Of a DNA stretch of 64,000 bases, positions 3,700 to 59,519 are shown piece after piece. Location of the stretch: contig CP075494.1 in the NCBI GenBank assembly GCA_021613535.1, positions 62,001 to 126,000 of the forward strand, given 5' to 3'. The stretch's first letter is position 1. Each line of letters begins with the position of its first letter. A program made the translations under genes and the position numbers. The DNA is from Adineta vaga. Lineage: Eukaryota; Animalia; Rotifera. The notes under the pieces are model-generated. The model made no database searches. It worked only from the letters and a program-made list of their open reading frames with translations, and was not told the DNA's origin.

Positions 3700-4276
3700 C
3701 TGTTTACTTATATAGTATGATGTTTTGCTCTGTACTATTCGAGTAATCATTGACTTCCCCGCGGCTAAAGAAGTGTTGCATTCTTTCTTTTTTTGTAGCT
3801 TCTGAGCTAAACATAGATTGAATAGTTACTCATTTGGGCTTTGTCGGACTTTTCGCCATTCCGAAACCAGATAAAGTTGTTTTTCATTCGCTATCTATAC
3901 AATAATTAATGGTTTTTCTTTTTATCCAATATATAGACAGAAATGAAAAGTGAACAGCAATTGATATTTCTTTGTTATCAGCGTGTGGAGACTTTACCAC
4001 TCAGGTACCACTATCTATTTTTCAGAGCTTTTGTATATAAAAGAAATGTCTTAACAAATTTACTAAATTTTCACTTTTTCCGGTGACCAGGCGACGCCTG
4101 GCCTAGCCCATCCCTGATTACGCCAATAATAGCTAGTTACAAATGATTATATTATATTGTGTTCTAGCAAAGATTTTCGTTTATTTGGTGCTATTACATG
4201 TTTGATTCGATGACAAATCAATAATAGGATTTTAGCCAACTACTTCCTTCTTTTTCACTTTTTTCTGTTTTTATTC

Positions 4277-4358
4277 TGGGTGAGGGTTTGGGTGTGGGTG
4301 GGTGTCTCTGTTACTCACGAACGCACTCACACCTACACCCACACCCACACCCACATCC
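4277..4358. repeat. Head-to-head telomeric repeats (TGTGGG)n-spacer-(CCCACA)n
   Basis: gggtgagggtttgggtgtgggtggg ... cacacctacacccacacccacacccaca. Confidence 0.85.
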
Positions 4359-4379
4359 TTAACCTCAAGCCACAACCAT

Positions 4380-4460
4380 CCCATGTTTTTCATTGCGATT
4401 AAAATGCGGCGTAGTTACGCACAACCGCGCCGCATTTTAAGCGCAATGGAAAACATGGGT
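4380..4460. repeat. ~80-bp hairpin/mini-MITE
   Basis: cccatgtttttcattgcgattaaaatgcggcg / cgccgcattttaagcgcaatggaaaacatggg. Confidence 0.75.
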
Positions 4461-12699: not shown

Positions 12700-13694
12700 T
12701 AAGAAAAAGATTAAGTCTAATAAATTTTCGAATTCATTTGTATTAATCTATCTAGTTTTCATCTAACATATCTTTCCGTTATGAAAGACATTTTCAAATA
12801 CCAATTTCCCATCATATTCTTTTTTTCTAGTTAGAATTTTTTATTTTTATGTAGTTAGTTTTTTTCAATATCAATAAATACATCTATAGATATTCACACA
12901 TCAAAATATGTCCGTAACATAAAAGAAAACCATTAAAACGATTCATAATTTTCACAGATATGGAACTATGTATAGATATGAGCATTCAATGTTTGTTTGT
13001 ACTTAATTCTTGCGTTTTGTACTCACAAAAATATATTGTGAAGGACAAACTTGTTTATTTTTATCTTTATTTTCTCCGTCATTCATTTTTTTTCAATTAC
13101 AACGAAAGAGAGAGAGTGAAAGAAAAAAAACATTCATTATAATAGATATATATGTTTGATACGGCTATAGTTAATAGGTGTGCAAAACAAAATTCGCACG
13201 AAGAGATAGGATTGCTCAGTTTTTTTACTCTTAATTATTGTATTTTGTATGCAGAAAAATATTGTGAGAGGTAAAGTTATATATTTAACTCTATCTTTTT
13301 TTCTACATTACTCACTTTCTTTCGGCTGTCGTGAAAGAAAAAGGTATATATGTAAAAATAATTGTATACATTTGATGCGATCATAGAATAATGAGAAAGA
13401 AAACTCGTATTCATATGACAATAATACACTAAAAATCTATGCCAGTTTAAGTTTTGATCAGAACGAAGAGTGTGAGTGTATTGCAAAATAAGAGATGCTG
13501 ATATCTTCATCCACACTCTCAAGATGCTTTTGGAAAATAAAATCTAAAGTGATAGTGAAAGATACCTGTGAGTAAAAGTCCATCATATAATTGTTCAAAA
13601 TAGAGATTCAAATATTTGTAAATGATTTCTATTATTCTACGTCCTTTGAATTATGTCTTTATTGAAAAATTTAATTTGATAATAATAATAAAAC

Positions 13695-14063: not shown

Positions 14064-14705
14064 TCTGCATTTATATATATATAAAAAAATCAGAAAAATA
14101 AGCGGAAAAAATAACGAAAATAAACGTAAAACAAGAAACAAACGAAAAGTTTTAACGAAAGCTGGATTATGTAATAATATAATATAAATAAGAGGCAACG
14201 AAGGAGCTTACTTTAATATATGAAATAAGTCGACTAAGTGAAGATAATTATTATGAAATATAGATCTAATTCAAACAGCACCCAAAATCAGATCAAAGAA
14301 TTGGCATACCTAAACAAATGTAAAAGGTGAAAGTTTCCGTAACACATATACCCGCCTCTATATAAACGGACGAATGTAATACAATCATCTCAGAAAATGC
14401 CAACCAACGTCACAGCATCACAACCCATTCCAATAAATATACCATGTTATTCATAGTTCCAAATCAATACCACATAATTCCACTTAATGAATCTTTCACC
14501 CACAAAAACGTTCACCTTTCTCCTTCTGAAACTTGTACGATTTCCTCACTTGAATCCTCATTACAACAAAACAACAAAACCTTCTTCTCATTAGTAATAC
14601 TTTCAAGTGTACATCACTATGTTAACTTCATAAATTTCATAAATTATGCGGTATCGTCAAATGTAGCCTATTTTTGTGATTATCGAATAATAAATAAACT
14701 CATAT

Positions 14706-14746
14706 CATCTGAAGAGTCTTCTTAGCTGAAGATGAAACCGGTCATG
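14706..14746 (+). ncRNA. Type I hammerhead ribozyme at the 3' end of an Athena/Terminon unit
   Basis: cat-CTGAAGA-gtcttc-ttagct-gaagat-GAAA-ccgg-TC-atg, ~10 nt before (ACACCC)n. Confidence 0.85.
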
Positions 14747-14756
14747 GCGGCTGTTT

Positions 14757-14785
14757 ACACACCCACACCCACACCCACACCCACC
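14757..14785. repeat. Interstitial telomeric repeat (ACACCC)n junction
   Basis: acacacccacacccacacccacacccaccc. Confidence 0.9.
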
Positions 14786-18785: not shown

Positions 18786-18844
18786 ACACACCCACACCCA
18801 CCCACACCCACCCTCACCCTCACCCACACCCACACCCCACACCC
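18786..18844. repeat. Interstitial telomeric repeats, mixed CCCACA/CCCTCA
   Basis: About 10 units. Confidence 0.9.
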
Positions 18845-20707
18845 TTATAACAAGTTTTTATAAAGATTTCAATTTATTCAAAAACATCTATCCAAAATCT
18901 CAATTTTTCTTTTTTTAAATATTTCATTTCTATTTTCTTCGGAAAATTGTTTGGCTTTATTTTAAAACAAAATAAAGTACTTTAAGAAAAACAAAGATTT
19001 ATTTATATTGGAAATAAAATCATTTGTTTGCTTTTGTTTCTATAGAGTTTAATGGTTATTATACTTTTTTGATATGATTTTTCTGGATAATCAGAATATT
19101 TTCTAATATGAATCAGTTAAGATGAACAGTATTTAGTAAGCGATTTTGTTTCAAAGTCTGTCATAGTACTTTTAATTTATCTATTGCGATTTCTGAGAAA
19201 ACCTACGAATTTTTCAATGCACCGCTCAACAGTTGTTTCCTGTAAATTTAGAATAAAAGTGAGGAGGCAAGGGGGCACATCATTGGCAAGCGTTTTGATC
19301 TATTCCCCTTCAGCACGATTTTGACTTGTGATCTTATATGAACGTATATCCCTCCATCTGTGGCGCGTGAATGTATGTCCAACTTTTCGCCTTGAAATCT
19401 TCTACACCTTCTTTCAGGTAGTGTTTCACAGAGTATTTGAAAATAAAGAAAAGCAAAACAAACGATAAAATATTTTCAATTCTTTTATTTGATTTTAAAT
19501 CAAATTAAAAAAAAAATTTTTATATTAAAAGACAAATGACAAATAAAAAGAGAAAAAGTACTTTGACGCAGATAGTGCAATAAAAAGTATTGATGGAACT
19601 CTCAAAGTACCCGCACATAATTTAGAAAGTCTCGATATTGCTTAAATACTTTGTAAAATTTTTAAGTGTTTTAAATCAGATACTTGTGCCAACTATCTAT
19701 ATTTATTCGTACTCATGTAATCGCGTAATCCTTTGAGATGTAGTTGTGGCTCCTAATTCTTATTCACACATTTGTGTTTCCTCTTCTTAGGGCCTATATT
19801 CACCTTGATTGTAGACAGATAGAAACTCATTCAAGAATTATTATGTAATATGACCCATCAAATAGAATCAATTAGTAAAGGATGTGGGTTAACAAGACAC
19901 ACACAAACCCTCAAGATTTTGCACTTCTGGAATTCATTGAAAACGAAACGTTCATTCATGTACGTGATGAAAACAGGAAGAACAACACATTCCATTTGAT
20001 ATAATTAAATTATAGTAAAATATTGTCACATGACCTTCATGCATGATGACCCGTCTGCCAAAGGATCTCTGAATCATAAACGTGTTACCAGATATAGTAT
20101 AAACGGATAGAACTTCACTTTTGTGCTATTGTCCTACTCTCTCAGTTCTGCTCCGCAATAAACGATACACATCGTAGCTATTAACTAATTAGAATGCAAT
20201 AATACTATATTTTCGAATTTGATGTGCATAATCGAGTGAATTAAAAAGTAGCAGAAATACTGTCGAGATTTTTTTTCATTAAAGATCATATATTTTCAAT
20301 TTACTTCAATCAAATAACTGTCAAATGGGCTGAATAATATCCTTAAAATTCATTCATATCGAGATTTATTTCTATAGTATTCGAAAAGCAACAAACAGAT
20401 TTTGTCTTTTATGACATCATTTACTTTTACATTTTTCTCCATCCATCTGTCACTATTTATTATACATATTCTCTTTTGACTAAATATGAAGACAAATAGA
20501 ATTAAGTAAAGGAAAAAGAAATTATGTTAAAACGAGTAAATTTATCTATTTGAATCAATATTAAAAAAACATAGTGAGAAAAGCAGAAAATGAAAGTGAG
20601 ATGTCGATATAATTTATTATAGTTGTAATGAGATATGATATAAATAAGTTGAATATTCAACTCAATATATTTGAACTTATAGAAACAAAATTTGATTTAT
20701 CATTACA

Positions 20708-25601: not shown

Positions 25602-25731
25602 ACGACTACTGTTTTTATGTGAAATAATTAAAAGACAAAATATTTCTTCAATATCAAAAAAGTACAAAACTGATATTGATATTGTTGTTGTTATATAAAG
25701 TGATTTTAATAAAGATGAAAAAACATTGATA

Positions 25732-26975
25732 TTAGGTTGTCAACAAAGTTCTGTCGTTTTTTTCTAAAATCTTGTAGAACAACCAAGAAAGTTCTAGAAG
25801 TTTCCATACTAAGGGTATATATATAGAACATGAATGTCTTTTGAATGATAAAAAAAAATCGTTGATACGGACGTTGATGTCGAGTCAAAGATGAATCTTT
25901 CTCATAGAGAGGTTCGAGTGCTTTTACTTCATGAATTTCGTTTGGGGCACAAAGCAACGGAAGCAGCCAGCAACATATGCGGCACGATGGGTCAGGGTCT
26001 AGTCTCCACTCGTACCGCGCAACGTTGGTTCAATCATTTCAAGAATGGCGATTTAGAACTCGACGACTTACCTCGATCTGGTAGACCAATGGAAGTGGAT
26101 GTGGACTTTTTAAAGCAGCTTATCGAAGAAGATCCTCGACTGACTTTACGGTGTTTAGCAGAGCAGCTCGGGTGCTCTCATACTACGGTGGAAAAACATC
26201 TGAACGAATTAGGCAAGACCTGGAAATATGGGGTATGGATACCTCATGAATTATCGGCACATCAGCTGCAACAGAGAGTTGATGCATGTATGGATTTAAT
26301 CACATCTCACCGCAACTACCAATGGTTATCCAATCTGATTACTGGTGATGAGAAGTGGGTGTTGTATGTTAACTACACGCGTCGACATCAGTGGCTGAGC
26401 GCTGGTCAAACCGGCGTAGCAACACCGAAGGCTGATCTCCATCCCAAGAAATTGATGCTGAGCGTCTGGTAGGGTATCAAAGGAGTTATCCACTGGGAAG
26501 TTCTACCAAATGGTTACACCATCACTGCTGATCTGTACTGTCAACAATTGGATCGGGTTGCAGAAAAGCTCAAGGGAAAGCAGGATCGAGTTTATTTTTT
26601 ACATGACAACGCTAGACCACATGTAGCAAAGTCGACCCGTGAAAAATTATTGAAGCTCGGCTGGATTACCATTCCTCATCCACCTTATTCCCCTGACTTG
26701 GCTCCAACAGACTACCATTTGTTTCGATCTCTTTCGAATGATTTACGTGATAAAAAGTTCGACGACGAAAGCGATGTCAAAACGGAGCTTGTCAAGTTCT
26801 TTGATGAAAAATCCCAGGACTTCTACGAGCGCGGGATCATGTCTCTGCCAGAGCGTTGGCAACAAGTGTTAGATAGTAATGGTAAATATATATCTGAAAA
26901 CTAGTTGTACTTTTGGAGTGAAAAAACAAAAATAAAATTTTTGAAAAAAACCCCAAAACTTTGTTGACAACCTAA
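25732..26975 (+). mobile_element. Full-length mariner (DD34D) element
   Basis: TIRs ttaggttgtcaacaaag / ctttgttgacaacctaa, TA TSD. Confidence 0.95.
25891..26904 (+). pseudogene. Mariner transposase with one in-frame TAG (26470-26472)
   Basis: WIPHEL, TGDEKW, HDNARPH, YSPDLAPTDYHLF; SVW* where SVWW is expected. Confidence 0.92.
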
Positions 26976-27134
26976 TATTAATATTAATAAAAAGCAATAT
27001 TTTGGTTCAGTTATTGGTTTGATTATCTTGATTTTTTTTGCACAATAAAATCACAATCGAGTAGAGGTTTTTATTTACACGCATGTATAGTAATATGGTG
27101 ACTGAAATACGAGAAGGAAAAGAAATAAAACAAA

Positions 27135-28328: not shown

Positions 28329-29766
28329 TCAGAAGAAAGGTTTATCATGTATATTAGAAGAAAAAAAATATGTTAAACTTCGACTGCGCTCTTCCATATT
28401 GGATAGACGAGCATCGACAATAGTGGACATGGTCGGAGGAAATGATGGTATTTTAGATGATTCATTTTGTTGCTTTTGATTTTCTGCATTGACTGTAATA
28501 GCATGTAGCATTGACAATGGATATTTTTTCTTTTGATGATGAATGACTTTTTGGCATGATTCGAATTTAGCTTGCCAAAGTTTCCTGGCAGTCAAGATCT
28601 AAAATATCATACAAGGAAAAAGAATAAAGTAAAATAAAATCTATGTAATAAATGAATAGAAACCTGTTGTGATGTTGGATTTAAATCATAGAATGATTTG
28701 ACAAATTGTGCATCATTAATATCAAACATGAATAAGATTTTCTTTTGTTCAAAGCTCATACGAAAATAATGTAGATCTTTTTTTACTAGATGCGTGAGAG
28801 CATTGGAAATAATATTTATGGGATGGTGTGGAGGCGCTTTTCTTTTCGTTTGACAAAATAATGGGTCTAGTTCGTGATATAAATGATTATTTAAATTATG
28901 TTCAGCTTGTTCCAGTTTATTTTGAACTATTTGTTGACATCGTGGAATATTTTGTTGCGTTACTGTATAATCCCAATTGATAGAATTTTGTCTAAGAACA
29001 TCTTTAGAAATTTTTGATAACCAAATTATAATATGCATGTCTGCCATGTTGTTAATATAATTCCAATAATCATTTTCAATTCTCAGTTGGTAAACTTTAC
29101 ACATTAATTGGGCACGTTGCTGCATCAGTTGTAATGTTGTAAAATTTGTAAATCGTTCTTGAATGATTTGGTTATCTCTAGGATGAATTATGTTCAGTAG
29201 TAAATCTTTAAATTGATAGGATGAAAGTTCGTAATAATTAGGTATTAGCATTGATGTTTGTTTCCCATGATCTGTAGATAAATTCTATTGTTGAAGACTA
29301 TTTCGATATGTTTTAGATGATGGTGGCGAAGTCCAACTTCCTGTTGATATTGTTGGGATCACAATCGATGATTGATTAGTTGATACAATTTGTATGTTTT
29401 CTTTCTTAGATTGATATTGACAAAAATGATCCTAAATATATTAGAAAATACGGTCTTACTTTATTTTGCAACTTATAATGATTAAACCTGATAGTTTTCA
29501 AGTAATAATGAAGGTACTTTGTTGATATCATTTTGACTACGGTCAGTACAACAACTATTTCTACTAATCGAATCTAGTTTTCCACTGTTTTGATAAGTTG
29601 AATGAGATATTTTAGACGTTTCCACTAACTTTTCAATTGCTTCATTAGTCATTCCTTTTGAACGACATTTTTTCCTCAGTCGTTGTAATCTTCGATTATC
29701 ACGACATTTTTTTCTTCTTGAACTTTGTTGTGTTAATTGTTTCGATTGATGGATATCTTTTGTCAT
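28329..29766 (-). CDS. Terminon coiled-coil ORF1-type protein, spliced and possibly disrupted
   Basis: Basic RRKKCRDNRRLQRLRKKCR N-terminus, helical Q-rich body, intron after NPTSQQ as in paralogues. Confidence 0.65.
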
Positions 29767-30385
29767 TTGTGTATAGTATAGTAGTTATAAATCAACAGAT
29801 TTATAAGTCTTTTTTGTTATCTAGAAAAGAAAACAATAATAAATCAAGTTTAATTCAATGAAATAGACTGTTTAATGAGTGTGTATAACAATACGTAAAT
29901 CTTACATTCTACAGTAGAAAACAAACATTAATAAAGTAATAAAAGATGTGGCAAATTTCTAAGACTGTTTCATAAAGTATTTTTCAAAAAACAATGTACT
30001 ATATATTGATTATGACAGAAAATTTAATTTATAATTACATAGTCACAATGTACGGCTAATTAGAACAAGGTTACATTTACAAACACAATAGTCATAATCA
30101 CATAAACAGAGTCTTTTCTGTAACGTTTATTATTTTATTTTAATTTTATTTTAAGTATATCTTTTAAAGTAATTGATTGTTATCACCAGAAGAGTTTCCG
30201 AATGTTCAAGATTGATTCATAATTTTCATCTAATATAAATAAATAGGTACAAAATATGTTGTCAAGAAAATTCTTAAATGTCATTCTAACCTCTCAGTAC
30301 TTACTTTAATGTCTGGCATCGTATCGTCATTATGATGATTGAAATCTATGTTTTGGAGTTCTTCGTCGGTTGAATTACAATCTAG

Positions 30386-30889
30386 TCAATTAGTTTGTAT
30401 TAAATCAATATTAAATATTGAATGTATTAATGTTATCAATGAATAACTGTACGTACCACAGAATGTTTGCTCAGTACGATAATGTTTTTTGATTAATGTG
30501 ATGCTAATGACTACAATAATACTGGTCAATAAAAAAATTGAGAACAGTAGCGTGAGAATAGTGAAGAAGGATGATGGATTAATTGTCCCAAAATAATTAT
30601 TACATTTTAACAGAGAATTAGAATCATTATTAAGTATCGTGGTCTTTGGTGTAGTAAATGGATTAACTTGAGAATATTTCAATGTCTCATGAAAATAAAT
30701 GTATGGTACATGTATTATGCAATCCATCTTTTTGTCTTTTACCATCATCAAAACTAAATGTATTGTCTTACAAATCCAATGTAATTTAGCTTGTGTATCC
30801 ACATCTTCACTTAATTCGTGTATGTAAACTATTTGGTGATCGCATATCTTGTGTAGCGCTTCACATGGTGATATTGGAAATGTTTCCAT
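30386..30889 (-). CDS. Terminon accessory single-pass membrane protein (main exon)
   Basis: TM helix; homologue of 17966-18451. Confidence 0.65.
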   Translation of the reverse strand: METFPISPCEALHKICDHQIVYIHELSEDVDTQAKLHWICKTIHLVLMMVKDKKMDCIIHVPYIYFHETLKYSQVNPFTTPKTTILNNDSNSLLKCNNYFGTINPSSFFTILTLLFSIFLLTSIIVVISITLIKKHYRTEQTFCGTYSYSLITLIHSIFNIDLIQTN

Positions 30890-33474
30890 AGTCTAAAATT
30901 GACAATTGAAAATATCACCTAATTTAATATATATCTGAAAGAGAAGATTTTACAAATACAAAATAAATATTCAAATGTAAATAAATTAATCTGAAATTAA
31001 TTTTTAGAAAAAAGTATATTTTATTAATAGTGAGTGTAAGAACAGACAGGTGTAGTTTACATCTTTCTCTTCAAGATTTTATGTATCTAATAATACTTTT
31101 AGAGAACTTTACATAGTCATCAAAAAATTAAAGTGAAAAACTGTGTGAATATTTTCTTATCGTTCACTATTTTTAATGAGATGCTGATAATGGACTGGAT
31201 AATTTGTTGGAACTAGAAATAATATGTAGTTAATCTTGATCCATTTAATATTTTTTCGACTGTTTAGGAAAATCAGTCATACTTGCCGCACCATTTGAAA
31301 TTGGCTGATATATTTTACACTGATATTTTACTTTACTTTACTTGAAATAGTGGTATCTTCTCCAGTCGAACTACAAGTTAGATATTTTAGTTTTCTTCTC
31401 TATTGTTCACTGTATGTTGGTCGAATAACAATGAACATTTCAATTCCATGTGCAAATATATTTGGATAATGATTTTTATTTTGATGCGGATCATAAAAAT
31501 TATGTATTGTAGTTGTTGCGAGAGTTGTCAATCATAAACAAGGTTATTTCGGTACTTATATATATGTATATGTTCAAGTAACTTACTTGTTCAAGAAATT
31601 GTATTGATGGCTGATAAATTGTATGATTAATTAAGTTATGTTTATATCTAGAATATATTAAGATATAATTAAATGTAAGTGTAACGTATTTAAAAAAACA
31701 TGATGAGAATTTGAGATGTTTATCCTATACACTAGTAGTAAAAGAGGAAGACGAAGAAGAAGAAGAATAATAATAATATAAAGTGAAACAGATGCGAATT
31801 ACAATGAAATTTTAACCAAAACAAATGAGCTAATCAAAGATATACTAGCTAAGACTAAAGATTTTAAGAACAATTAAATCGATGTAGAAATTTGCTGAGT
31901 TATTTTCGGTCAGGTTTGTTTTCAAGAGACATATTCTTGATGCATTTCGATAGTAATGATATGTTAGGTAATGAAATCGATGGATCGAATTCTGGTAACT
32001 TGAATGTGACCGCTTGATGTTGTTGTATTTGATTGGCATGTTGTGCGGCTAATACCGATGTTCTTGGTAATGTTGCATTTGCAGTTTATGTTATAATTAA
32101 TGTTGAACTTAAATGTTGTGTATTTTCTATTGGAGATATCACCCTGTCATCTGTATCCATCATTTCTAATGGCTCACTCTTATCTAGTTAGAAATTAAAA
32201 TATACGTCATTTTCACGATACCTATCAGTGAAGATTTCTTACTGTTACTTGAATTCATTTTGTTAGGAGCAGACGTTGAATTACTATATGACGCCATTTG
32301 GAAGCAAGAGTAAGTTGAAAAAGATGATTAAAAGAAATAAAATTAGTATGAATTTAGATCTGAAATGAAACAAAATTAGATTAGTTTATGAGTTATATCT
32401 CTTTCATTCTCTTGGTTAACATAAAAGTTTATTCAAACGAAGCTATTACAATAACAATAATAAATAACATAAATACGTGAAATAATAGATAATTTACAAT
32501 AAGTTAGTTTCATCAATTCAAAGATTGATGAACAGAATAGATCAACATGGATGTAGTTTTCTAATATAATAAAATCCATGAAGTAGAATCATGTTCTGCA
32601 TTATTTGTATTCCTCTGATTTCGTTTTTGATATAGTGAATTGATTTGATTGACTTTTTTGTTGTAACTCCTTTGTCAAATCTTTGTCTTCTTCATGTGTT
32701 AGTGATACATCTTTTTGCAAAGTTGTATCTTTAGCATTACTATAATTAAATACATAGTGTTCGACCTACAAATAATGACATAAATGGAAGGAGAGTACAA
32801 ATATCAGCTTGTCTATTTGTTGATTTAAAATATGACGTATTTTACCTCACGACGATCAAGTGCAACGTAGCATCGCAAAAAATCAATTGAAGTTTCATTT
32901 GTAACGATGTCTGTAACTTGTTGATTATTAGTTAATTCTTTCTGGTCGTTTCCAATAGTTCTTTTCGTAATGTCACTGATTGATAATGGATCAGACAGCT
33001 GACAAGAAATGAAAGATATTTCGAACATACGTTAGCTTTGTTTTTTTCTCTATTTACCGGCTCGATTTGTTGTTGTTGTTGTTGTTGTTCTTTTTCTTGA
33101 TTGTCATCATCTGAAACAAAAAAGAGAGTTTTAGTTATTTTATTCAAGAATTAAATATGTCATAATCCTGATTACTTTTGTCTTGGTATGTTGTTCTTGT
33201 AACAGACATTGGTTTATTGAAACGTAAAAAAAGATATATTCGAGATGATATCTACAAATACAAGAAATGACTAAAGAACGGCACCACAATTACGAATAAA
33301 TATTCTAATATTCTGTTTTTTTTCTTCACAAAATATATCAACGAAACACAAATACACACAAATAGAGCATTATTATTCGAAATATCTTCAATGTTCCATA
33401 TTGTGGTTGTTATATCTAAAACGGATCCAAGAGTTAGGTTCATATCATTATGCACATATGTCTTACGATTTAAA

Positions 33475-34302
33475 TCATTTTTTTTGATTGTATATAACAA
33501 GCTGTTCTTTGGTCCAGTTATAAACAACTAACATTCGTAGTTTGGTAACAGCTAGGCAATCACTAGCAGCATATCGAATTAATTCATTGCAAATTTTTTG
33601 TCCTATTGGATTTGTGCTCATTAATCGTCGACCCCATTGACTTTTAGTCCGACTCTTATCTAGGAATTCGCAAAATGTATAAGCAGTTGCTTTCTGAAGT
33701 GACCATTGATTGTTTTTATGTTTTACTGGTCGATGTGCACATGAACATAGACTATGATCATCTTCATACAAATCAAGACCACAATTATGAACAAAAATAT
33801 TATTATACCATATTCTGAAGGCACTTTGTATATTCATGGTATTCATTTGATTAAGAAGTGCCGAAGAAAATAGATCATAATCTAAAAAGTGGCTTAATTC
33901 CTCCACAACATCACCCCACGAGTAGATAATATTCGATGAATTGAAAATATTTTTAAGAAGTGATTTGATTAACCAAAAGTTAACAGTTGATGTTTGTGGT
34001 AAATGGCATGTTTCAATTAGAAGAATAGTTGATTGTCTTTGTTCAATGAATTCAATTTGAATTAATGCTGCTTCATGTGTATAATAATCATGTTCGGTAT
34101 CGATCGTATATTCCGTTGTTTTCCTTGATAATTCAATAAGATGATGTAATAATGACGGGTCAGTTGTATAATTGATACAACAGACTCGCCAATCATTGAG
34201 TGGAGTGAATTCTGGTAAAATACTTAATTGTTTATTTAAAAGTCGTTTTCGTTCATTCTTTGATAAGTTTGAATTTGATTGTAACATAATATTTCTGTGC
34301 AA
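33475..34302 (-). CDS. DEDDy 3'-5' exonuclease (Terminon-encoded); true start may be in an upstream exon
   Basis: ExoI IDTE, YSWGD...E, ExoIII YAASD; HNC...CSCAH insert. Confidence 0.8.
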   Translation of the reverse strand: MHRNIMLQSNSNLSKNERKRLLNKQLSILPEFTPLNDWRVCCINYTTDPSLLHHLIELSRKTTEYTIDTEHDYYTHEAALIQIEFIEQRQSTILLIETCHLPQTSTVNFWLIKSLLKNIFNSSNIIYSWGDVVEELSHFLDYDLFSSALLNQMNTMNIQSAFRIWYNNIFVHNCGLDLYEDDHSLCSCAHRPVKHKNNQWSLQKATAYTFCEFLDKSRTKSQWGRRLMSTNPIGQKICNELIRYAASDCLAVTKLRMLVVYNWTKEQLVIYNQKK

Positions 34303-34536
34303 CAGACTTAAAATGATTTCAATGATGAACTACTCGATTATTTGAATGCTTGACTTGAAATGTATCTAAAACAAGAAATCGAATATAAAGTATAAGAGAA
34401 AAAATGATAGAAAGAAAACATGTATAGGTTAAATGATGTGATTTATTCATAATCAATTTCAATCATGTATTATAGGGATACATCTCAAGGGATTGTTAAG
34501 GACAAATATAATGTCACATATTGAAAAATGTCTTTT

Positions 34537-37500
34537 TCAAGATGATAGTAAAGCATTGAGGGAATAAATGTGTTTTGTTGTCAATAGAATCTTGCATTTT
34601 TCATTGGATAATTTTGAATGAGTTCCAAAATATCTTGACCATTCTTCACGAAAATATTGATTGAATTCACATCTTGGACCATAATCGTAGAAATAATTGA
34701 AGTGAATTACTTGATTGTTATCATCCAATTCTTGAAGCTTTTCCGAGCGTTGTTTTTGTAGCGTAAAAAAATCAAACCATTTTTGACGAAACGAATAATA
34801 ATTCGATTGATCTGAATGGTATCGTATTGATTGTCTTTGGAAATAATCGAAGAAATTTTGTATGTGACTTTCAACAAAGAAAAATGAATAACCATTGACC
34901 AGATAGGCAAGTTCAAGATATAAACGTTCGTGATGAAAATCTTCAACGGATGAACAGTAACAAACAGCTCGAAGAAGTGCAAATTGAAGCCAATTACTAT
35001 GTTGTAGTTTTGAATGACCAACAACATAAGGTAATATATAATGTAGTCCCATTGGATCATGATATACTTTTGTGTATAATTCACCTTTTCTGTTTTCGAT
35101 ATAAGCATCCATATTGTACATTTGATCCAATCGATATTTCAAAACTAACATTAGGTTGTTGTTTTTTTAGCGATTGTAGATACGAATAAAGCATATTAGA
35201 AGACTTATTCCATGTAAAAAAGATGTGATCTTTATGTCTAAAAGATAGTGAGTGTCATTGCGAATAATATACAAATAAATAGAAAGAATTGTACTGACCG
35301 TCCAAATAATTATTGATTGTATTCGAATTGATCTAATATAGGTTTTTGCCATTCAAATAAATAAATGTTAGCTAAGGTTTGACTTAATGACATTGTGTTT
35401 GGACTACCTTTCTTGATTATATAAAGTTTATTTTCATATGTAAAGAGATTTTGATAGAAAAATAATTGTAGAAGATTTTTAATTGTATTGATTGATATTT
35501 TATTGACTGTATTATTTGATGATTTATCTTTTAAGAAACCTATAATTGTTTCAATCATTGTTTCATGTTTATCCAATGAATAAAAATTAGTAATTTGAAT
35601 TGTACAAAAAAGAGTTGTTGGTTTTAAACGACGTTGATCATATGCGTAATACATCAATTTTTTCATAAAATCAGCTTCGTTAGTAAATATTAAATATTTC
35701 ATTTTTTCGTCCACAAATGGTCGGATCAATTTATCAACATATTCGGCAATATTTGATGTCATACTTTGACGTGCTACTATACTTGGTATCAGTGTCAATT
35801 CGTTGTCCTATTTACAAACGAAATAGGTTATATAAATGAGAAAGATTGGGATGAAAAGTGGCAAAGAAAAACGAACAATAAAAGATTACTGAAGAACGAC
35901 ACTTACTTTCGAAAGACTTATATTTAATTGAGCGATAAAAATATTGGAATGAGCAATAAAAATAGTTGAAATGAGCAATAATCAAATTTAGCAATAAATA
36001 TATTGAATGAGCAATATATATAATGAATGAGGGATAATTAGATGAAATGAGCAATAATTAATTTAAATAAAATAATGTGTGTATAAAAAGGGCAATAATA
36101 ATCTGTTCATTTAATACAAATGGCTCAATCGAAACGTGTAGCAGACTATATGTTTGATTCTGAAAATGACACGGAAATGCAACCTTCAAGTAATAATGAG
36201 GATGAGGGTGTAGTGTGGGTGTGAGGGCGAGGGTGGGTCTGAATATAACAAAGACACCCACATCCACAACTTGCACCTGTCCATCATTCATGAAAAACTA
36301 TGTTTGCAAGCACACCATTGGTATGTCCATTAGATTAAAATATTGCAGACCTCCACCTGAGGCAAAAAATGTAGAAATTGGTACAAAAAGGAAAAGAGGC
36401 AGACCATCGAAAGCAAAAAAAGCTTTATTGATTCAATGATTAGTTATATATATTCCATTTTTCTTTTTTTTCTTGCCAATTGTAAAGAAAAATAATTTAG
36501 TTTTTTTCTTTTTTGTTGCTCAAGTATGAAATTAATATTGTTACGTAGTAAACTATTTATTGTTCATTTAATATTATAAAATTGCTCATATAATGTTTTC
36601 TTATTGCTCGAAAGTTACTGCTAAATCATGTTTTAATTATTGCTCATTCCAATATTTTTATTGCTCAAATTAATACAAGCCCTTTCGAAATATTCGGCAA
36701 TAAATATAGATAAGGTAATTTAACTTCCTTTGAATCAATCAATAATTTTTTGATTACATCATTATTTAATGCTTTGTGTTTTCCCAACGTTTCCAATGCA
36801 AAATTGATTGCTTCAATTCTGCCATTCAATAAATATTGTGGATCTTGCAATTGTTGTTTTTCATCATCGTTGTCTTCATCTTCATTATTATTATGACCGA
36901 TAGTCAATATGAATTCATATTTATCATTAGATTTTGACATAAAATCGTTTCCTTTTGCTATGAAATCATTCTTATTTCCTATATAGAATATATTTCGATT
37001 ATCACCTGTTCGTCGCAGTATTAAATTGTTTGTTTTTTGAGAAGATCGTATCGATTGAATTAATTTCATTTCATCAATAGCACGTTGTTGAATATGAGGT
37101 GGAATTGAAATAGCAAAAAGATCAGTAAATTTTTGATAAAAATCTGAATGAATACGCCATGATAAAGCAATGTCAATACGATGTTTTGAAAAGAGACTAG
37201 CCATTTGATGTTTTAATGGTGCATATTGCTTTTTCACAATATCGGTGATAGTTGTCGTTGTTGATTTCGACGAAAATTTAAGTCGTGATTGACAAGGTGA
37301 AACATAAGTCGGTCCTCGACTAAGTAACTGCATTTGTTTTTTATTTAATCCATGTTCAGTACCATTAATTATATTTAATAAAAATACATCAACATTTGTA
37401 TCTTCTTCAGGTTCGATTTGTTTGGATATGTTTTTCAGATTATCATAAGAACTTCGAAGAAAATAATTCACCCGATAATAATGAATCTCTCGTAAGCGAT

Positions 37501-38456
37501 CGGCAATATTGTCAAGACGTAGTTCTAATAGATTACTTAATGATGTTGTCATACCTTTGTTTCGTACAAGATTTCGATGATTATTTAACATTTCTTCATA
37601 TTCAAAATTGAATTTGTTTTCAGCATGATAGTATTTGAGTTCTGCTTTAGCTAGGTATGAGGCAAATGAGTCAAGTTTCATTTGTTGAAGCGTTTTTTCA
37701 TGCTTATTATCAAGTAAAAATTTCTGAACAGTATTAGATGATGTTGTAGAATCAGTTGTTAATGGCAATGCTAATTCGATATTGTTGATAAAAGCAGGAA
37801 GTTTATGATAGAAAACACGTTGTTTTAATTCAATTAATTCACGTTTCGCTTTTTCCAATTCATATTTTGATCTATGCAATCGTTCAGCTATTTCAATCTG
37901 AATAATGAAATAATGATATTAATTCTATGAAATCCATCGATTAGTTCTACTTGACTTACTTGATATTCATTTGGATTTTCTTGTTTATATTTTCTTTCAA
38001 GTATGATAGAATTGAAATTATATTTCAGTAAAGCTATTTTGAGATCTCTTTTCATTTGAAGTGGAATAATGCCATAGTGTTGAACATATTGAACGATTGA
38101 CTTTTCAATTACTGAAGTAAACCCGGTTAGACTGTTCTTTTTGTCTGTAAGTTGTTGAGTGTATTGTTCAATTTTTTCATTGATTTGTTTTAAACGTTCA
38201 TTGACAAAATTTTCATAATTGAGTTGTTCACTATTTGAATCTATTTCTGCCGTCGTCGTCGTCGTAGCAGTAATGTCTGATTGTGTCCGTTTTGCTAGCA
38301 TATCTGACATAACTTCTTCAGGCCAAACTCGTCGGTCAATTTCGATTAAATCCAAACTAGAATCATCTAGTTTGCCAGTACCAGATAGTAGATAAACAGA
38401 ATTAATCTGTTTTTGTATACGATTGGCAGTTATACGATGCATTAATAATGCTATCA
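34537..38456 (-). pseudogene. Athena coiled-coil plus RT fusion with non-catalytic motifs, disrupted
   Basis: LSRGPTYVSPCQ, KLPYLYLLP, FCTIQITNFYS, LANIYLFEWQ, GRHKDHIFFTWN, LPYVVGH; stop at 35310, frameshift ~35112, MULE insertion. Confidence 0.8.
35915..36681 (+). mobile_element. Internally deleted MULE inserted at the RT splice donor
   Basis: 9-bp TSD CTTTCGAAA (35906-35914, 36682-36690); TIRs with GAGCAAT repeats; retains SWIM finger CTC..CKH and AT-hook KRGRP (~36268-36439). Confidence 0.88.
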
Positions 38457-38791
38457 TTTTTTTTTTTTTTTATTTTGCTAAAACTGCGATCATTCGATCC
38501 TAACAGTACAAAAAGTTATAGAAAAACAAACACAAAAAAAAAAGTGAACATTACTGTAACGACAAACTGGTTGAGTAGCTAACCGCCTCTCACGGTATGA
38601 TGTTTATTGACTACTCTACATGACCAGAATGTGCCGGTTTCACAATAAGACACACGTTTATATAGAGAAGAGGAAAGAGAGAGATGACCCGGAGACAATA
38701 TGATATAGAGGTGAGAGAATAGAGAACAGAAAGAGATGAACGATATCATTATCGTTACAATTACCCAGTAAAAAAAAACACCAACATATGA

Positions 38792-43519: not shown

Positions 43520-45017
43520 AGGAATGGCTTTTAAATTCCAAAAATGAGCAATAATTAAAAAAAAAATTCCTCGAAATACTTTAACACGTGGTTAAAGTGG
43601 AGAAAGAAAGGAAAAAAAATGTAAACAATAGACGAGAACGACGAAAATGAGAAAGCGGATAATTGTTGTTTATGAAGAAGAGGAAAAGTATACAATCATA
43701 GATTGTCACAATGCCAGATACCTATAATTTGAAACTTAAATTCAACTGTCTAATTCTTCGTTCAATTATTCGAATATTCGTATAATTGAAAAACTGAACA
43801 AATAGTTAAATAGTTGAATTGAAATTTCGATTTGCGCATTACTAAAAGCTGCAAAGATCGTAGTAGCTATTCATAGCAGACTGCCAGTTCGTGTGAACAA
43901 TGATTATGAATAATCAACATTACATAAATAACAAGAACAATGACAGTTCTTTGTTCACTTTTGAAAAAGGGTGAAAATCATGAGGATCGTTGTCGAGATG
44001 TCATTTCTAAGGGCAAGTTCTATCTTAGGTGTTATCCATATAGTCGAGTGTAATGCAAGTCTCCTTCGACGAGCGTTATTTATTGTAATTAAATTAGACA
44101 AAAGTTTGAATTTTAGTTTGAGGAAAAAGTTTCTTTTGAGCTCATTAAGTCGACGAATTTTCCGAGTAACTAACCATCGGTGTGAAGACGTGGCAGCGCG
44201 TAATCATTAACCATTTTCGAAGCCGTTGTCATAAATTTTGTACGATCACATGAATATTCATAGCCAGCTTCACTAGAAATTGAAAAAATAGAGGAGTAGT
44301 CGTCAGCTTGCTGAATAACGTCATGATTTAAAAACATGACCCGTTCATGTGATCATTTACGTCAGCTGAAATCATCAAATTCTGTGATGGAATATACAAT
44401 GCCCGTTCTTAATAACGACACTAGATCGAAACTTTATTTTGTTCTTACCCGCGTTCATCTATTTTTCAACCAATTCCAAACAACCTTATAATTGGGGAAT
44501 CCTTGGATGACGACCTATCGATTAATGCATTTCCGATCCCTCTTCTCATATGTTTTCGTGGAGAAATCACCGGTCTACGATCGTGATGTCTTGCTGTCGT
44601 TATTACTTACTACTTCTGTAATATTGACACTCAAGTGAAATCTATGCAGAAAATGGAATTTTTTCAAAAAACAACATCTTTGACGAGTTTTATCAAGAAA
44701 TCGATGGCACGGTTTTAAGTCAATTTTGAAGATCGTCTCAAGTTCTACTTATATCTATCGATTCAGGTCGATTGAACCATGTCTTAAGAAATCCTAAAAT
44801 CAACAAAAAGCATTTCGGATCGATGGAAAAAATAGATGTCCCTAATGACGACGCCCAGCAATTTTTTTGCTCTAATAACTACAATGAGCTATTTGGAAGC
44901 GATTTCTGGGGCGAAGCTGATGGCGCAATCTTCAACATCGTAGAAGAGAAAGCATTCCCCAACGATCTTATCCAAACATTAATTATACGAGATCATTAAC
45001 AACAATATCAGCGGCTA

Positions 45018-45950
45018 TTATGTTGGCAACAGAGTTCTTGTGTTTCTTACAAGTTTTCTAAAACATTTGAGAAAGTTCCAAAATTATTCATATTAAGGGT
45101 AGATCAAGGAAGTATGAATATCTTTCGAATGATGATATAGTCATCGAATATGAATGGTGATCGTGAACTCAATAAATCTTTCGAGGAAAGAGATTGAAGT
45201 GGTTTTTTACTGGCTGCATTGCGTCTGAGTTACAAAGCAATGGAAGCAGCCAACAAAATATGTTGCATAATGATCGATGATGTACTCTCTATCTGTCTGA
45301 CATAACATTGATTTGATCGTCTTAAGAATAGCTGCTAAGATGTTAGCTTCCTATCTGAGCAAGGGATAGAACATCGGCAAAAGAGAACAAAAGAAAAAGA
45401 AAATGAAGCAAAGGTAATGTACGTAGGGCTCGAACTCACACCTTCTGCTATCCACAGATGTCTTAGATCGGTTAGACTAAAAGGACCATTTTAATTTCAA
45501 GTTTAGCGTTGTATGATTCACACAAAAGCTAACATAAGAACTCGACGATTTACCTAGCTCTAGACGATCGCTAGAAGTTGCTGTGGAAAAGCATCCAAGC
45601 AGAATAGATTATACATGAAAGTATAGAGCCTAGATACCCCACAAGTTAGTACTATATATCCTTCAACAAAAGGTTGCTGCTTGTATAGATTTAATCCTAT
45701 CTCACCGCAACTAGCAGTCGTCTCATGATTTTATCACGGGCAATAAGGAGTGAACAATGTATCTAAACTACACTAACAGACACCAACAGCTGAATGCTGA
45801 TCAAAGAAGCGAATCTACGCCGAAGACTGATTCATATCCCATGAAACTAATTTTCAGTGTTTGGTGGGAAACCAGTCGAACTATTCAACGGCTATTTCTT
45901 CTAAATGGCTGTACCTTCCCTGTCGATCTCTACTTTCAGCAATTGGACCG
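45018..45950 (+). mobile_element. Decayed, 3'-truncated mariner related to 25732-26975
   Basis: TIR ttatgttggcaacagagtt; relics caaagcaatggaagcagccaac, ctcgacgatttacct, SVWW, QQLDR. Confidence 0.8.
45341..45534 (-). mobile_element. tRNA-carrying TG...CA element, copy 2, nested in the decayed mariner
   Basis: TGTTAGCTT...AAGCTAACA ends; 5-bp TSD TAAGA; A box and GTTCGA box on the minus strand. Confidence 0.85.
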
Positions 45951-46131
45951 ATATGATTGGATACGAGTGAGAGACTGAGTGAGGGTGTGGATAAAGAATA
46001 AATACTCCCATTCATCCTACAACAACATCTGGTAGGGTCCCATACATGACTTCTAAAAGCAAAGTTTTAGATGATTGAGATGAAATCATCAAATTAAGAG
46101 CGTTCATAGTGTAGTGGTTAATGGTCAAGTT

Positions 46132-48180: not shown

Positions 48181-49212
48181 AGTGAATGATGATCTAAAAA
48201 GTAAAATTATAACGGTTCCCTTCCAAGAACAAAGGCGTATAAGTCCACAAAATCTCTCATCCTTGCTTAAACCAATGAAGTTCATGGAACAATGCAGAAT
48301 AGAACAGCAACTCTTTTCATAAAAAAACTCAAATCTTTTCGTGAGCGTGCGGAATTTATGCGGTCTACTTTACACTACCATGCCCTTTTACGTGATAAAC
48401 TGTCATATTTGGACAGTAGACTCAAATGGTCTCATCGGAAAGGACGAAAATTTCTTTGTCGATTCTTACCTGAACCATCTGGCAAGTGTCCACAAAAAAT
48501 GCAGGGACTATACTCTAAAAAAATATAGGGAATATGACCGAACCCAAAACAAGTTTCGTAGATGTCAAAAGCTTTCAAATGCATCAACAAATAGAAAGAA
48601 ATGTTTTTCAAAATCAACGAAACCTAGAAAGGGTGTGGGTGTGGGTGAGAATATTCTCCTTCATTCCTCAGTCGCACCTGCATCTATGCATACACGCACA
48701 CTCACACTTTTCAGACTTCATCCTAAAGATAATGAATACTAGCACCGTGCACGAATTCATTACTGTGTTAAAGGAAAAGGTAATCGTCATTCGAAATAAA
48801 TATAAACTGTATTTCTGAATTAGTCGAATCTTTTATCAACTGTGTACAACTCGATTAAAAAAGAAATTGAGGGATATGAATAAAATATGGGTTTATGAAG
48901 TACAACACTGCTGTATCACCCCATCCTATTGATGTCAACATCGAGGCCAGAACAAAACCAAATACTACTAATATTGCAATCGTTGTCCATATATCGAAAA
49001 CCTTAAAAGATCTCTATAATCAGCTCAGTTAAGATGATACTTAAAGAACTTTTGAAGATTCTCTACAAAACAATAAAATATGCAGGTATATGCTGAATTA
49101 TAGGCTCACTCTCCCTCTCTGCTTTTCTACTATACTGAAAGTAGGATCCAAGACAAAAAGGATTGATGATCCTGTCAAATGATGTTCTTTCATAGAATCA
49201 CAGTAAACTTAC

Positions 49213-50460: not shown

Positions 50461-51583
50461 TATCGCCTTTCATTTAACACCAAAATATTAAAGCTAGCTT
50501 ACATAGAATATATTAATAGCAGCATATAATATAAGCCTTTGTTATGTAATTATGGCAGATTAAGCAGCTGAATCAAACTTCATTCAATCTTCATCAACAC
50601 ACGAGTGTAATTTCAATGGATTACTTTATATTTAATGCTTTGATAGTTGTATTTTAACCAATTAGTAACAGAAGGTAGGTGCAAAATCTTTACCAAAATC
50701 TTATAAACACTGCTTTTATTCACCTTTTACAATGAAATTTCCAACAAAAATATATGACAGCTTCAAGTATGCTTTTTCTTCTTTTTTCTTTCCTTTCTGG
50801 TGTCCTTATTTCATAAAAAGATTATTAGTAATGTTTTATGACTCACTGGAGCATACAAAGAAAATATACTGTTATTTCCATTAGCTGTGACACAGTGGCG
50901 TAGCCAGGATTTTCAGAAGTATGGCCAAATTTCGCATATTTCGAGAAAGACACTGAGCAACCACGGGTAACGTTTTAATCGACAGGGCAATATTTTTTTA
51001 ATATAATAAAGGTTTAAGGAATAATAAAATACAACAATAGAAAGTGAAGCTCTTTTATTCGCTCGACTGTAAGGACGATCATATGGAAAAAATAGTTTGT
51101 TTGTAAATTTGTGTCAAAGTCAAAGGTCAAAAAAAAGACTTCTTACTAAAATCGTCTCCAACATGGAAAAATGGTAGGGGGATGGGGTGGGGTGAAGTCT
51201 GAGGGTGGGTGCGGGTGAGATGTCAAAAAAACGTTTTTTCTAAAACGTTCCGAAACATCGAAAACTAATAGTAGGATGGAGTGGATGTGAGGTTAAAAAA
51301 ACATCTGTGAAGTCTGGGGTGGAATCATTATGAGCGATAAGGAACCTGAGTAATGTGTGAAAACGTAGGTGGGTGTGAGTCTCTAGTATAGGGGATGAAA
51401 ATAGAATCTCCGATCACTGACTCTACAGTAGACGGAGTAGATGATCTAGTGATCTGACGTAGGAAAAGAATGAATCTCATGTCAAAAGTCCTACCTGATG
51501 TGAACTGTAATAATGAATAGGCTACTGTTTAAACGCTAAGTAAATTTATTGAAATTCTCAGTAAGAAACTCTATATTTTCTAA

Positions 51584-55857: not shown

Positions 55858-56907
55858 TTAAATTTTTAAATAAATTGTACATTTTCTCGCATCTTTGTTA
55901 TACTCAACTTTATCAATAGTAAAGTTAATGCCAGCTGGAAGTAAAACTTCGGCTTCCTTTTGGATTGCTGATAAAGATGATATATCCAAACCAAATGATT
56001 CTGTAAATGGACGATCAACAATATCAATAATAAACACCGTACATACTTCATCGGAAGCTAATGAATCTGTAAATGTATCTGTTACGTCTGGATTTTTTGT
56101 CGTCGAAGAAAAAGCTGACCAACAACGTGTCTGTCCAATAGCTGTTTTACATTGTTCGATATGTTGTATTTTACATTTACCACCACGATAAACACGTTGT
56201 TGAGTTTGTTTATTTGTTTCACGACAATTCCAAAGAGAATTTTGAAGAAGAAAACAATAAGGACCAAGTGTTCTTAATTTTGAATGATCTTCACTTCGTA
56301 ATACATAATTCAAAATACGATAAAGAAAACATTCAACTGTATAAATATAAATACAGTATTTACCAATATGAGATAAACTTTTATTCTTTATTTCGCGTAA
56401 TTTCTTAGCAAATTCTTCACCTTTCTTTCTATCGTTTTGTTTTTCACACAATTTACTTTCTTCTTCTATACCATTAGCTGCCAATTCAAGAATTTTTTAT
56501 GCATTTTCTTCTGTTAACATATAACAAGAATGATTATATTGATTAGCCCATTCAAAAATAAATTTCGAGAAACCATTTCCTTCTATGAATGTTTTCGAAG
56601 GTAATTCAATCGGATTGAAACGCTGTTCACGTAATCCAAATGATTCTGCTGATTCGACAGTTTGACGACGAATGGGTCGTTGACGATTTTTATCCGTTAT
56701 ATGTTGTTGTACTTTATGCTTGAAATCGATCTTATAATTATTTCCTATCATAACTTCATTTTTATTTTGTTGATAAGCTTCTTCAATTATTTCATTTTTA
56801 TCATCAGAAGAAGGTGACCATTCTTCTAGTTCATTTTTAGACCAAGGATTTGGATTGGATTTCCAATGCCAAGAAATTCTAGATATTTCTTCAGTAGCGG
56901 CTGCCAT
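55858..56907 (-). pseudogene. WWE plus R-S-E ADP-ribosyltransferase with one in-frame TAA (56497-56499)
   Basis: WHW...W...IEEAY..IDF..Q...RPIRR; VYRG, FSSTT, EAEVL. Confidence 0.85.
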
Positions 56908-57743
56908 CTTTTCAATTGTTAACACTGTTTCCACCGTTTCTAAAATATAGAAAAATAATACAGTTTCGATTCTCTCAAACTCAATTTTCTAGTGAGACTG
57001 GAATCGATCTACTGACTGGCTTCTTACCAGTCTCTCGGGGCTGCACCAGATACCTATTTTTTCCCCGAACTCGATCCAAATCCCGGCGGAACCCGGATAA
57101 AAAACCTGCATCTACCGGGCCCTACTTTTCACTTTGTTGTCGTGTATCTCCCGGAAGGATGAAGCCATTTTGTTACTTCTATTCAGTGGTTAGCATCTTT
57201 TTATATGTAAAATTCAATATCTACATTTTTCTTTAATTTTTCAGTCAATTTTCATTTTAACTTTCACTCAAGGTACTCTGATTTCTTAATATTTTTATTC
57301 AAAGTAGAACTCTCTGTGCTTCTTGCTAATCGCGATTTCATGAAACTCAGATGTAAATAAAAGTAAAAAAATATATTAACTTCTGTGAATAAGAAACGTT
57401 TACATAAGTAAAAAGTATAGAAGAGCGCCAGTAAGTTTTTTTACTTTTCTCATCGTGGGAAGAAGAGTAACAAAAAGCACTTTTTTACGCAACGAAAAAT
57501 AATTTTCAACCATAATTCTTTTGTCTACAAAAAAACTCTTTTTATTGCAAACATCTCACAAATGGAGATTTTATTTTATCTTTACTTTATAAATAAAAGT
57601 AAAGAGTCACTATATCTTTATTTCTTTATCTTTATTCTTTGCAAAATATAGATAAACATTCTGTTACTTTATTGTTTATTATAAGGAAAAATAAAGTAAC
57701 ACATCTACTCACAAACATTTTCTCTATTTTAATACAAAAAACG

Positions 57744-58731
57744 ATGGCATCTAGTTATGATGGAACGAGACAAAATATTGTTTGGTATTGGCAGTCTAAT
57801 ACAAATCCTTTTTCTACAACTGAAGAAAAGAATTGGACAAAATACGCTCCGAGTGAAAATGAATGTATTGAAGAAGCTTATACAGAGAATTCGAACAAAG
57901 TGGATATTAATCAAAACTACTTTATTGATTTTAAGAAAATGTTACAAATCAGTAAATATGATCCGAATAAACAAAGACCAGTCAAGAGAGAAAAGGAAGA
58001 TATTCAGCAACAGGTAACTATTCCTTCTTCAACAAGTGCTTCAGTGGCGCCTGGTGAAAAACTTAAGTTTGTTGACAAATGGATTAAACAAAATAATATT
58101 AGTTCGCATTATTTTAATGAGCAAAATGTTGAAGAAATCATTCTGCTAGCAGCGAAAGGTATTGAAACCGAAGGTAGATTACTGGGAAAAGAAGATGAAG
58201 GTATTAATTTAGCAGACAAATTACGAAAATTAAAAAGTTACAGTTTACTGGAAGTGAGTAAAACATGTGTTTATATTTCTACTCTGGAGACTTATCTATA
58301 TAAAATTGTAAATAAATGTTTAAGAGAAGATGATATGAATAAAATCAACACGTTAGGTCCATTTTGTTTTCTATTGGTTAATGCTTTATGGATGTTACGT
58401 CGTAATGAAAATATCACTCTGTACAGAGGGGTAAATCTAAACGAAGAATTATTGATCGATCACAAGGCTGCTATAGGAAAAGGATTTAGTTGGAAAGCTT
58501 TTACGGCAACAACACGTAACCGACAGATTGCTGAACGTTTTACAAACACATTATTTATTATATCAGTTGTACAAATGCCTTTTAAACCAGCATATTGGAC
58601 TCCTGTATCAGAATACTCGGAATACCCCAGCCGAAGAGGAGGTACTTTTACCAGCTGCAGTTACTTACATAATCAATGATATCAAATATGATGATGCAAC
58701 AAAAAAACATTTCATTTATATTACCATTTAA
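57744..58731 (+). CDS. WWE plus R-S-E ADP-ribosyltransferase; +1 frameshift at ~58627
   Basis: WWE motif; LYRG, FTATT, and EEEVLLP in the shifted frame. Confidence 0.85.
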
Positions 58732-59519
58732 ACGTACAAATTCATCTCGCTTTTGATTGTTCTTATTCTTTTCTTTTCTTTCGAAATAAAAACAAGTGTT
58801 CGAGTTTTTTGTGATACATAATAAGAATAAGATATGATTGGTAATACACGTTCATACAAAGAATTCCATTGTTCTTTTACAGAAAAGTCAGTTTTGAAAT
58901 AAAACAATTAAAATAGATAAAGCCTGTTCAAAAGTGATGTTGAGAAGTGTGAAATAATAAATCATTCACATTCATAGTATATTGAAAAGAGATTGATAAT
59001 GAATTCTATTTAACAATGTATTATAGGTAGTGGATGAGTGGAATTTATCATCACTCAATTTCGAAATAGAATCAAATAAATAAATCGTACGACTATCGTT
59101 TATTATCATGATATATTTGGAAATGTTAATCCATTCGAGCTGATTCGAAAGCAAAATTTTAGATCTTTACTTAAGTTTTCATTTTTATTTAGAATGCATA
59201 TTTTTTCTTCGTTTCTGTGTGAATATCTTCTTTTAAAAATGCAAAAAGTAATACAAAGAGCTCTTCAACGACTAAAACAAATCGATGTGGGTGAATAGAA
59301 AGATGTGCATGTGAGTGAGAGTAAGTGTGAGTATGAAGAGAAGAGAAATACCTACATTCATATCCACATTCTCACACACCCTCCAAATAAGATCAAATAA
59401 GCATAGTGAATTATTCTTTTATTCTTTATTTCTGTAATTTCGTTATAAATTTTATACTATTATTGATTTATTCTTGTTTTACAAAAATCCTTTTGTTGAA
59501 TATAATAAAAATGAATTAT

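Follow-up and report, generated by a model that had tools for sequence, protein, structure and literature searches.

How a short run of telomeric repeats came to face a second, oppositely oriented run across a few nucleotides of other sequence is the question raised by positions 4277–4358 of the window, the whole 64-kb stretch of Adineta vaga DNA analyzed here, which is AT-rich (GC about 0.30) and holds many transposons. TGTGGG is the bdelloid telomeric unit (PMC8494291; PMC7943196; for these and all papers cited below, statements refer to the available portions of the text). Our answer is that such a unit is probably the scar of a double-strand break: an RNA-templated enzyme, probably telomerase, would have added a few telomeric repeats to both 3′ ends before these were joined.

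A permissive two-strand scan, blind to pairing and with an arm-score threshold of 7, returned 33 telomeric tracts in the window and confirmed the G-rich/spacer/C-rich structure claimed for 4277–4358. Pairs of arms no more than 45 nt apart were G-then-C in six cases (4277, 13467, 19879, 36197, 48630, and 59284) and C-then-G in none; 12 local shuffles of the window gave no G-then-C pair and one C-then-G pair. The fixed head-to-head polarity asserted by the first-pass annotation was thus upheld in 6/6 detected pairs. The word GGGTGWGGG was counted 20 times against 0.05 expected, a count reached by 0 of 100 shuffles. Four of the five units named in that annotation lay over the scan threshold, and the fifth, at 45958–46030, fell short in its C arm; two pairs (13467–13521 and 19879–19913) were additions to its list. 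Spacers, which it had put at 15–25 nt, measured 8–25 nt overall and 13–19 nt in the five named units. The window carries six to seven units within 55 kb, with arms of 2–9 repeats (Table 1). Divergence was about equal for the two arms in 6/7 window units, as would be expected if both arms were made at once; the exception was unit D (0.00 versus 0.31). Changes from G to A made up 46 of 68 arm mismatches, a share that is biased by lenient G>A scoring and was not used. Units A, C, and D are not assembly artefacts, since short-read contigs reproduce all three: unit A is covered by X1 contigs (records 1, 5, and 6) with 0 differences, X7 record 18 spans 4175–4360 across it with 0 differences, and X1, X3, and X5 contigs bridge units C and D with 0–1 differences (0 for unit D).

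Table 1. Paired telomeric units of the window, with the transposon copies beside units B and C
Feature	Position	Strand	Description
Unit A, G arm	4277–4304	+	TGWGGG repeats that include one 4-nt slip; 1 mismatch in 28 nt
Unit A, spacer	4305–4323		19 nt; minus strand reads TAACAGAGA up to the facing arm
Unit A, second arm	4324–4358	−	G-rich on the minus strand; 3 mismatches in 35 nt
Unit 13467	13467–13521		Weak, decayed; 25-nt spacer; arm scores 7.6 and 9.5, near the threshold of 7
Unit 19879	19879–19913		8-nt spacer, consisting entirely of TAACAAGA
Internally deleted MULE DNA transposon (host of unit B)	35907–36690	+	TIRs at 35907–36024 and 36573–36690
Unit B	36197–36268		G arm 36197–36238; 16-nt spacer ending in TAACAAAGA; C arm 36255–36268
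Decayed mariner copy	45016–45951	+	Homology to the copy at 25722–26985 ends at 45951; 68% identity
Unit C	45958–46030		Decayed; G arm 45958–45990; 14-nt spacer; weak C arm 46005–46030
Unit D	48630–48707		Perfect 20-nt G arm; 16-nt spacer; much-decayed C arm
Unit E	59284–59383		Decayed; AAGAGAAGA after the G arm

A metagenome scan (4 of 64 parts) gave 125 loci, of which 113 were dropped at a GC of at least 0.43. Most of the dropped loci look, by eye, like bacterial REP-type palindromes, and a few are long GT-type arrays. Ten of the 12 AT-rich loci were kept, seven of them from one assembly; the other two, a CA microsatellite palindrome (L041) and a perfect hairpin (L109), were dropped. Composition and repeat type suggest that the ten kept loci are bdelloid. 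Because the search pattern fixes polarity, these loci are uninformative on that point. Pooled with the window units (n = 17), arms were 11–146 nt and spacers 8–28 nt long. Possibly foreign genes lie beside metagenome units, with a cysteinyl-tRNA synthetase-type domain (Pfam) at L020:229–552 and, by eye, a glycosyltransferase-like start at L089:225–385. Scans of viral sequence (3, 2, and 7 loci) yielded no locus in which telomeric arms are paired in this way.

The surroundings of unit A were compared with X1, X7, and X11 contigs. Lineage X11 has a multicopy repeat that aligns to 4129–4254 (as many as 19 contigs cover single positions), its match ending 22 nt before the G arm; the multicopy matches restart at 4460, past an 80-nt hairpin, and a single X11 contig connects 4184 with 4548 across a stretch of undetermined letters. 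These alignments place unit A at or inside a disrupted repeat without fixing the position of the break. Between 4254 and the G arm, loose ends of X11 contigs agree by eye with the T-rich window sequence at 16 of 22 positions, a weak match. The second arm of unit A continues as a looser tail to 4383, and the near-perfect 80-nt hairpin that directly follows the unit (4380–4459; 37-bp arms, RNA fold z −11.7) is unmatched in the X11 copies of the flanking repeat. Before the C arm, the loose-end consensus is G-rich at a distance of 10–20 nt in both X1 and X7; TCTCTTC adjoins the C arm in X1 (11 contigs, agreement 0.45) and not in X7 (6 contigs, 0.54), which is too weak to count. The flanks of unit A were also considered as arms of one fold-back element, which was rejected (score 31 versus a shuffle mean of 28). 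No joint across unit A, as from an empty allele, was found in X1 or X7 contigs, which drop variants. At 2467–2567, three degenerate C-rich repeats with a period of about 29–38 nt were seen; CTGTTA, also present in the unit A spacer, stands before the first of them.

At unit B, what was lost can be read from the transposon around it. Within the 0.78-kb MULE, codons 1 to about 26 of the transposase remain at 36120–36197 and the last 56 codons at 36269–36436; homology to a reference MULE (P0009, 617 aa, with MULE and SWIM domains) covers residues 1–26 up to 36197 and is found again from 36269. The unit thus puts 72 nt in place of about 535 MULE codons (about 1.6 kb), and it is flanked by both halves of a single MULE, still in their original order and orientation. 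A MULE fragment has named homologues in Rotaria. Summed X1 depth at 36228 was 1872 versus 72–78 on nearby unique contigs. The deleted MULE sits inside a broken-up terminon-like gene cluster (28600–38500, minus strand) of 3′–5′ exonuclease, PLE-type reverse transcriptase pieces, and other ORFs, of which contigs carry MULE-free copies (joints 35812–36682 and 35688–36794); the best named homologues of the reverse transcriptase-like ORF at 35313–35807 are in Adineta ricciae (80%), A. steineri, and Rotaria.

Truncation was seen at two further units. The 3′ part of the mariner that ends beside unit C was not found past the unit, where scores stayed inside the shuffle range. In metagenome unit L104, the G arm begins within an animal-type SPX/XPR1 coding exon, and the motif interrupted there continues as LKKHDK in 108 of 120 homologues; as a coding exon is interrupted, L104 gives a third coding breakpoint. 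The earlier statement that two units lie at demonstrable breakpoints stood, with the MULE deletion at unit B and the end of mariner homology at unit C, and deletion or truncation accompanies these 2/7 window units. Enrichment at breakpoints is suggested by this handful of units (B, C, and L104). None of the 15 of 85 contig joints listed is an empty site of units B–D, and contigs drop variants; as no empty orthologous site was found for any unit, break-and-fill is seen only against transposon or gene homologues. Units D and E, which sit between unrelated gene pieces, do not count as demonstrated breakpoints. In X1 and X5, a contig connects the unit D G arm (48649) with 51082, which could represent an allele or another G-tract locus, and a multicopy repeat at 51054–51400 has G-rich telomere-like stretches at 51173–51219 and 51369–51380. 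Two divergent WWE + ADP-ribosyltransferase-type genes (Pfam WWE and ART matches) occupy 55858–58679.

Target-site duplications were sought in the 14 of 17 pooled units that were testable. A unit's own flanks share 3.9 nt versus 4.2 nt for mismatched flanks, and inverted flank matches measured 4.6 versus 4.9 nt for mismatched pairs; unit E is the sole unit with a candidate duplication, a 5-nt word beside both arms. With neither target-site duplications nor mirrored flanks, the units are probably not MITEs or fold-backs, and the MITE alternative named as a refuting check in the first-pass annotation is disfavored. Uniform length and conserved ends, as in a mini-transposon, were likewise not found, as arm and spacer lengths vary.

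The spacer, described earlier as simply variable, appears variable but not fully random, since part of it recurs among units and loci. TAACARAGA abuts an arm in 3/7 window units. AAGAGAAGA is present in four of the ten metagenome spacers (0 of 300 shuffles), all four units being from one assembly of presumed bdelloid contigs, and a shared 7-mer of it is in 5/17 pooled spacers, that of unit E included (0 of 150 shuffles). An unanchored motif test on the window spacers alone gave a non-significant 2/7, which was reached by 177 of 300 shuffles. Units A and B have TAACARAGACAC in common, these being its sole two window matches at ≤1 mismatch, a number of matches also given by 25 of 100 shuffles; when this motif was held fixed and sought in the five other window units, one matched (19879, where it makes up the entire spacer), at a summed chance of about 0.012. 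By eye, the purine-rich word on the G-rich strand usually stands directly behind one arm and is often flush against the other. The unit A spacer was also found nearly unchanged elsewhere: X1 record 3 matches the unit from arm through spacer to arm (4281–4333) with 6 differences in 53 nt and X7 record 19 matches 4293–4333 with 2 differences in 41 nt, flanks being unaligned in both cases, and X1 record 4 gives a gapped match. A recurrent spacer part points to a template or to copying, and the near-unchanged unit A spacer is explained equally well by copying of a finished unit.

For the scar reading that we favor, the following course may be envisaged. A break would occur with loss of the DNA between its ends, and a few TGWGGG repeats would be put on both 3′ ends. 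On one end the enzyme would run past the 5′ template boundary and copy a few extra bases, producing the purine-rich word (TAACARAGA, AAGAGAAGA) behind the G arm. End-joining would follow, possibly aided by a run-on tail with a terminal CAC/CCC that can base-pair with the G-rich overhang of the opposite end, and both arms would later decay neutrally. G-then-C is the orientation expected from 3′ extension of two break ends, and a word that stands behind one arm and flush to the other is what would be expected from a reverse transcriptase running past the 5′ boundary of its template. The first-pass annotation had likewise proposed that both ends were capped and then joined, and polarity, position at breakpoints, and lack of target-site duplications speak for that proposal; its simply variable spacer was the part that did not hold. 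No RNA template for the spacer words was found; an Rfam search matched a tRNA only, and a literature search gave no rotifer telomerase RNA.

The enzyme involved would probably be telomerase. A bdelloid TERT is said to have been reported in older work. One survey did not find TERT in A. vaga (PMC5405514, in its available text). In A. vaga lines, telomeric repeats and Athena fragments have been seen at deletion breakpoints, and interspersed telomeric repeats had no meaningful change in density after irradiation (PMC13564844). We advance more tentatively, and as rather doubtful, the broader idea that bdelloids routinely close double-strand breaks by telomerase-bridged end-joining, with read-through of the telomerase RNA template boundary and pairing of tail and overhang. 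Were this route true, the spacers would be template-adjacent 5′ sequence of a rotifer telomerase RNA, and arm decay would date breaks genome-wide; if bdelloids truly lack TERT, the Athena reverse transcriptase would do the repair.

Single C-rich tracts in the window bear on that last point. At 14700–14784 (plus strand), an internal site, a hammerhead-like motif with its core from 14709 is followed by a pure (CACACC)n tract (14758–14784). At 62705–62990 (minus strand), hammerhead-like motifs at 62952 (by scan) and about 62795 (by eye) lie upstream of a C-rich tract, near a terminon-like ORF (63112–63582), making a second terminon end in the opposite orientation. None of the hammerhead scan matches (14709, 14060, and 62952) is at a paired unit: a hammerhead directly upstream of a single C-rich tract was found for the solo tracts 14758 and 62705 and for no paired unit. 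A further lone C-rich tract of 59 nt (18787–18845), mixing TGTGGG, TGAGGG, and 4-nt slips, stands without a partner arm or, by scan, a hammerhead.

As the linkers of these solo tracts are as long as the spacers, abortive terminon (Athena) retrotransposition is the main rival to the scar reading; we regard it as unlikely. Arms and spacer would then derive from terminon RNA, not telomerase RNA: the reverse transcriptase would prime on a G-rich break end, copy the C-rich tract and linker up to the hammerhead, and leave the template, perhaps where the ribozyme cleaves, after which the extended end would be joined to another repeat-capped end. The C-tracts at 14758 (plus) and 62732–62705 (minus) lie about 14 and 22 nt behind predicted hammerhead-like cleavage sites, a layout that is that of the terminon 3′ end (PMC6431247), and the 14758 linker ends in CTGTTTA, close to the CTGTTA of unit A. 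Athena-type elements prime at double-strand breaks (PMC3846280), and the Athena fragments at breakpoints (PMC13564844) and the failure of one survey to find TERT (PMC5405514) also fit. However, neither window linker matches a spacer past about 6 nt, no unit has by eye a hammerhead piece or a longer terminon stretch, and the arms mix TGTGGG, TGAGGG, and 4-nt slips where the 14758 terminon tract is pure repeat. A G-rich primer would also have to pre-exist.

It is improbable, in our estimation, that finished units were copied as filler, by templated insertion or gene conversion, or that they are a tiny mobile element with telomere-like ends. The matches to unit A across arm, spacer, and arm in other contigs with unaligned flanks would suit copying, as would the X1 depth at 36228, by which the scar in the MULE may itself be multicopy. 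Target-site duplications are lacking, however; units are dissimilar in arm length, in the pattern of arm variants, and in spacer length, and unit B replaces 1.6 kb where a clean insertion would be expected. Under copying, moreover, a first unit must arise otherwise.

That the units are relics of fusions between eroded true telomeres, or successive subtelomere layers, is very improbable. Polarity would be the same, the window is transposon-rich with terminon-like genes, and one interstitial repeat patch has been read as a possible ancient fusion (PMC8494291). The flanks of unit B, however, are both ends of one transposon with order and orientation kept, which fusion of two chromosome ends would not give; head-to-head polarity is as in fusion-derived interstitial telomeric sequences (ITS), and former-chromosome-end flanks were not found at B. 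Six to seven units in 55 kb with arms of just 2–9 repeats also argue against it. That decayed GT/CA microsatellites came to be paired by chance, or that the units arose by fold-back (hairpin) replication, is exceedingly improbable and was already disfavored for units A, B, D, and E: weaker units (13467 and 45958) are near or under the scan threshold and complementary arms can fold (unit A z −3.7), but the repeat word stands at 20 versus 0.05 expected, shuffles gave no G-then-C pair, flanks are not inverted copies, and arms within a unit are by eye not mirror images.

If the scar reading is correct, past chromosome breakage could be read from the units, which touches the long-standing questions of how bdelloids repair massive DNA breakage and whether their genomes are shaped by desiccation. 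With a recognisable, polarised, and datable scar, existing assemblies could be used to compare how dense and how old breaks are in desiccating versus non-desiccating species and along chromosomes. Should the spacer be template read-through, it would serve as a search key for rotifer telomerase RNA, and telomerase (or the Athena reverse transcriptase) would take part in end-joining as a regular route, as opposed to a rare vertebrate accident.

The class of mechanism is already known, from ITS and TERC-ITS at breaks and from neotelomere formation followed by fusion, and the paired bdelloid form is a variant of it. No description of paired head-to-head tracts in bdelloids was found in the literature available to the search, from which subscription journals were mostly missing. 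Cancer telomere fusions resemble the units in that a tract forms at a break and is then fused (PMC11293586); they are, however, somatic, hundreds to thousands of bases long, and join chromosome arms, whereas the units are short, fixed in the assembly, and, at unit B, local. For the bdelloid retrotransposon Hebe, error-prone end-joining deletions inside subtelomeric transposons have been reported, as here, with microhomology at the junctions and no telomeric filler described in the available text (PMC2861651); the present units have such filler. Terminon/Athena 3′ ends share short reverse-complement telomeric tracts and priming at G-rich ends or breaks (PMC6431247; PMC3846280), but each of their tracts stands alone behind a hammerhead as part of a long element (PMC6431247), whereas the paired units have neither hammerhead nor element body. 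In vertebrate short ITS and TERC-ITS, as in the units, small numbers of telomeric repeats have been inserted at broken sites, accompanied by deletion and lacking a target-site duplication (PMC8537989). One Xenopus locus is head-to-head, as in the units here, and in the vertebrate survey this arrangement was seen at 1/41 loci (PMC8537989), compared with every detected pair in the window. TERC-ITS are recognized by a flanking fragment that matches the telomerase RNA of the species, which in type B comes from just upstream of the template (PMC8537989); the recurrent spacer words here would be its counterpart. A. vaga neotelomeres, finally, have TGTGGG repeats and lie at breakpoints, and the paper writes of scars of transient neotelomeres (PMC13564844); those neotelomeres cap one-ended breaks (PMC13564844), whereas the units described here would represent two capped ends re-ligated over a short spacer.
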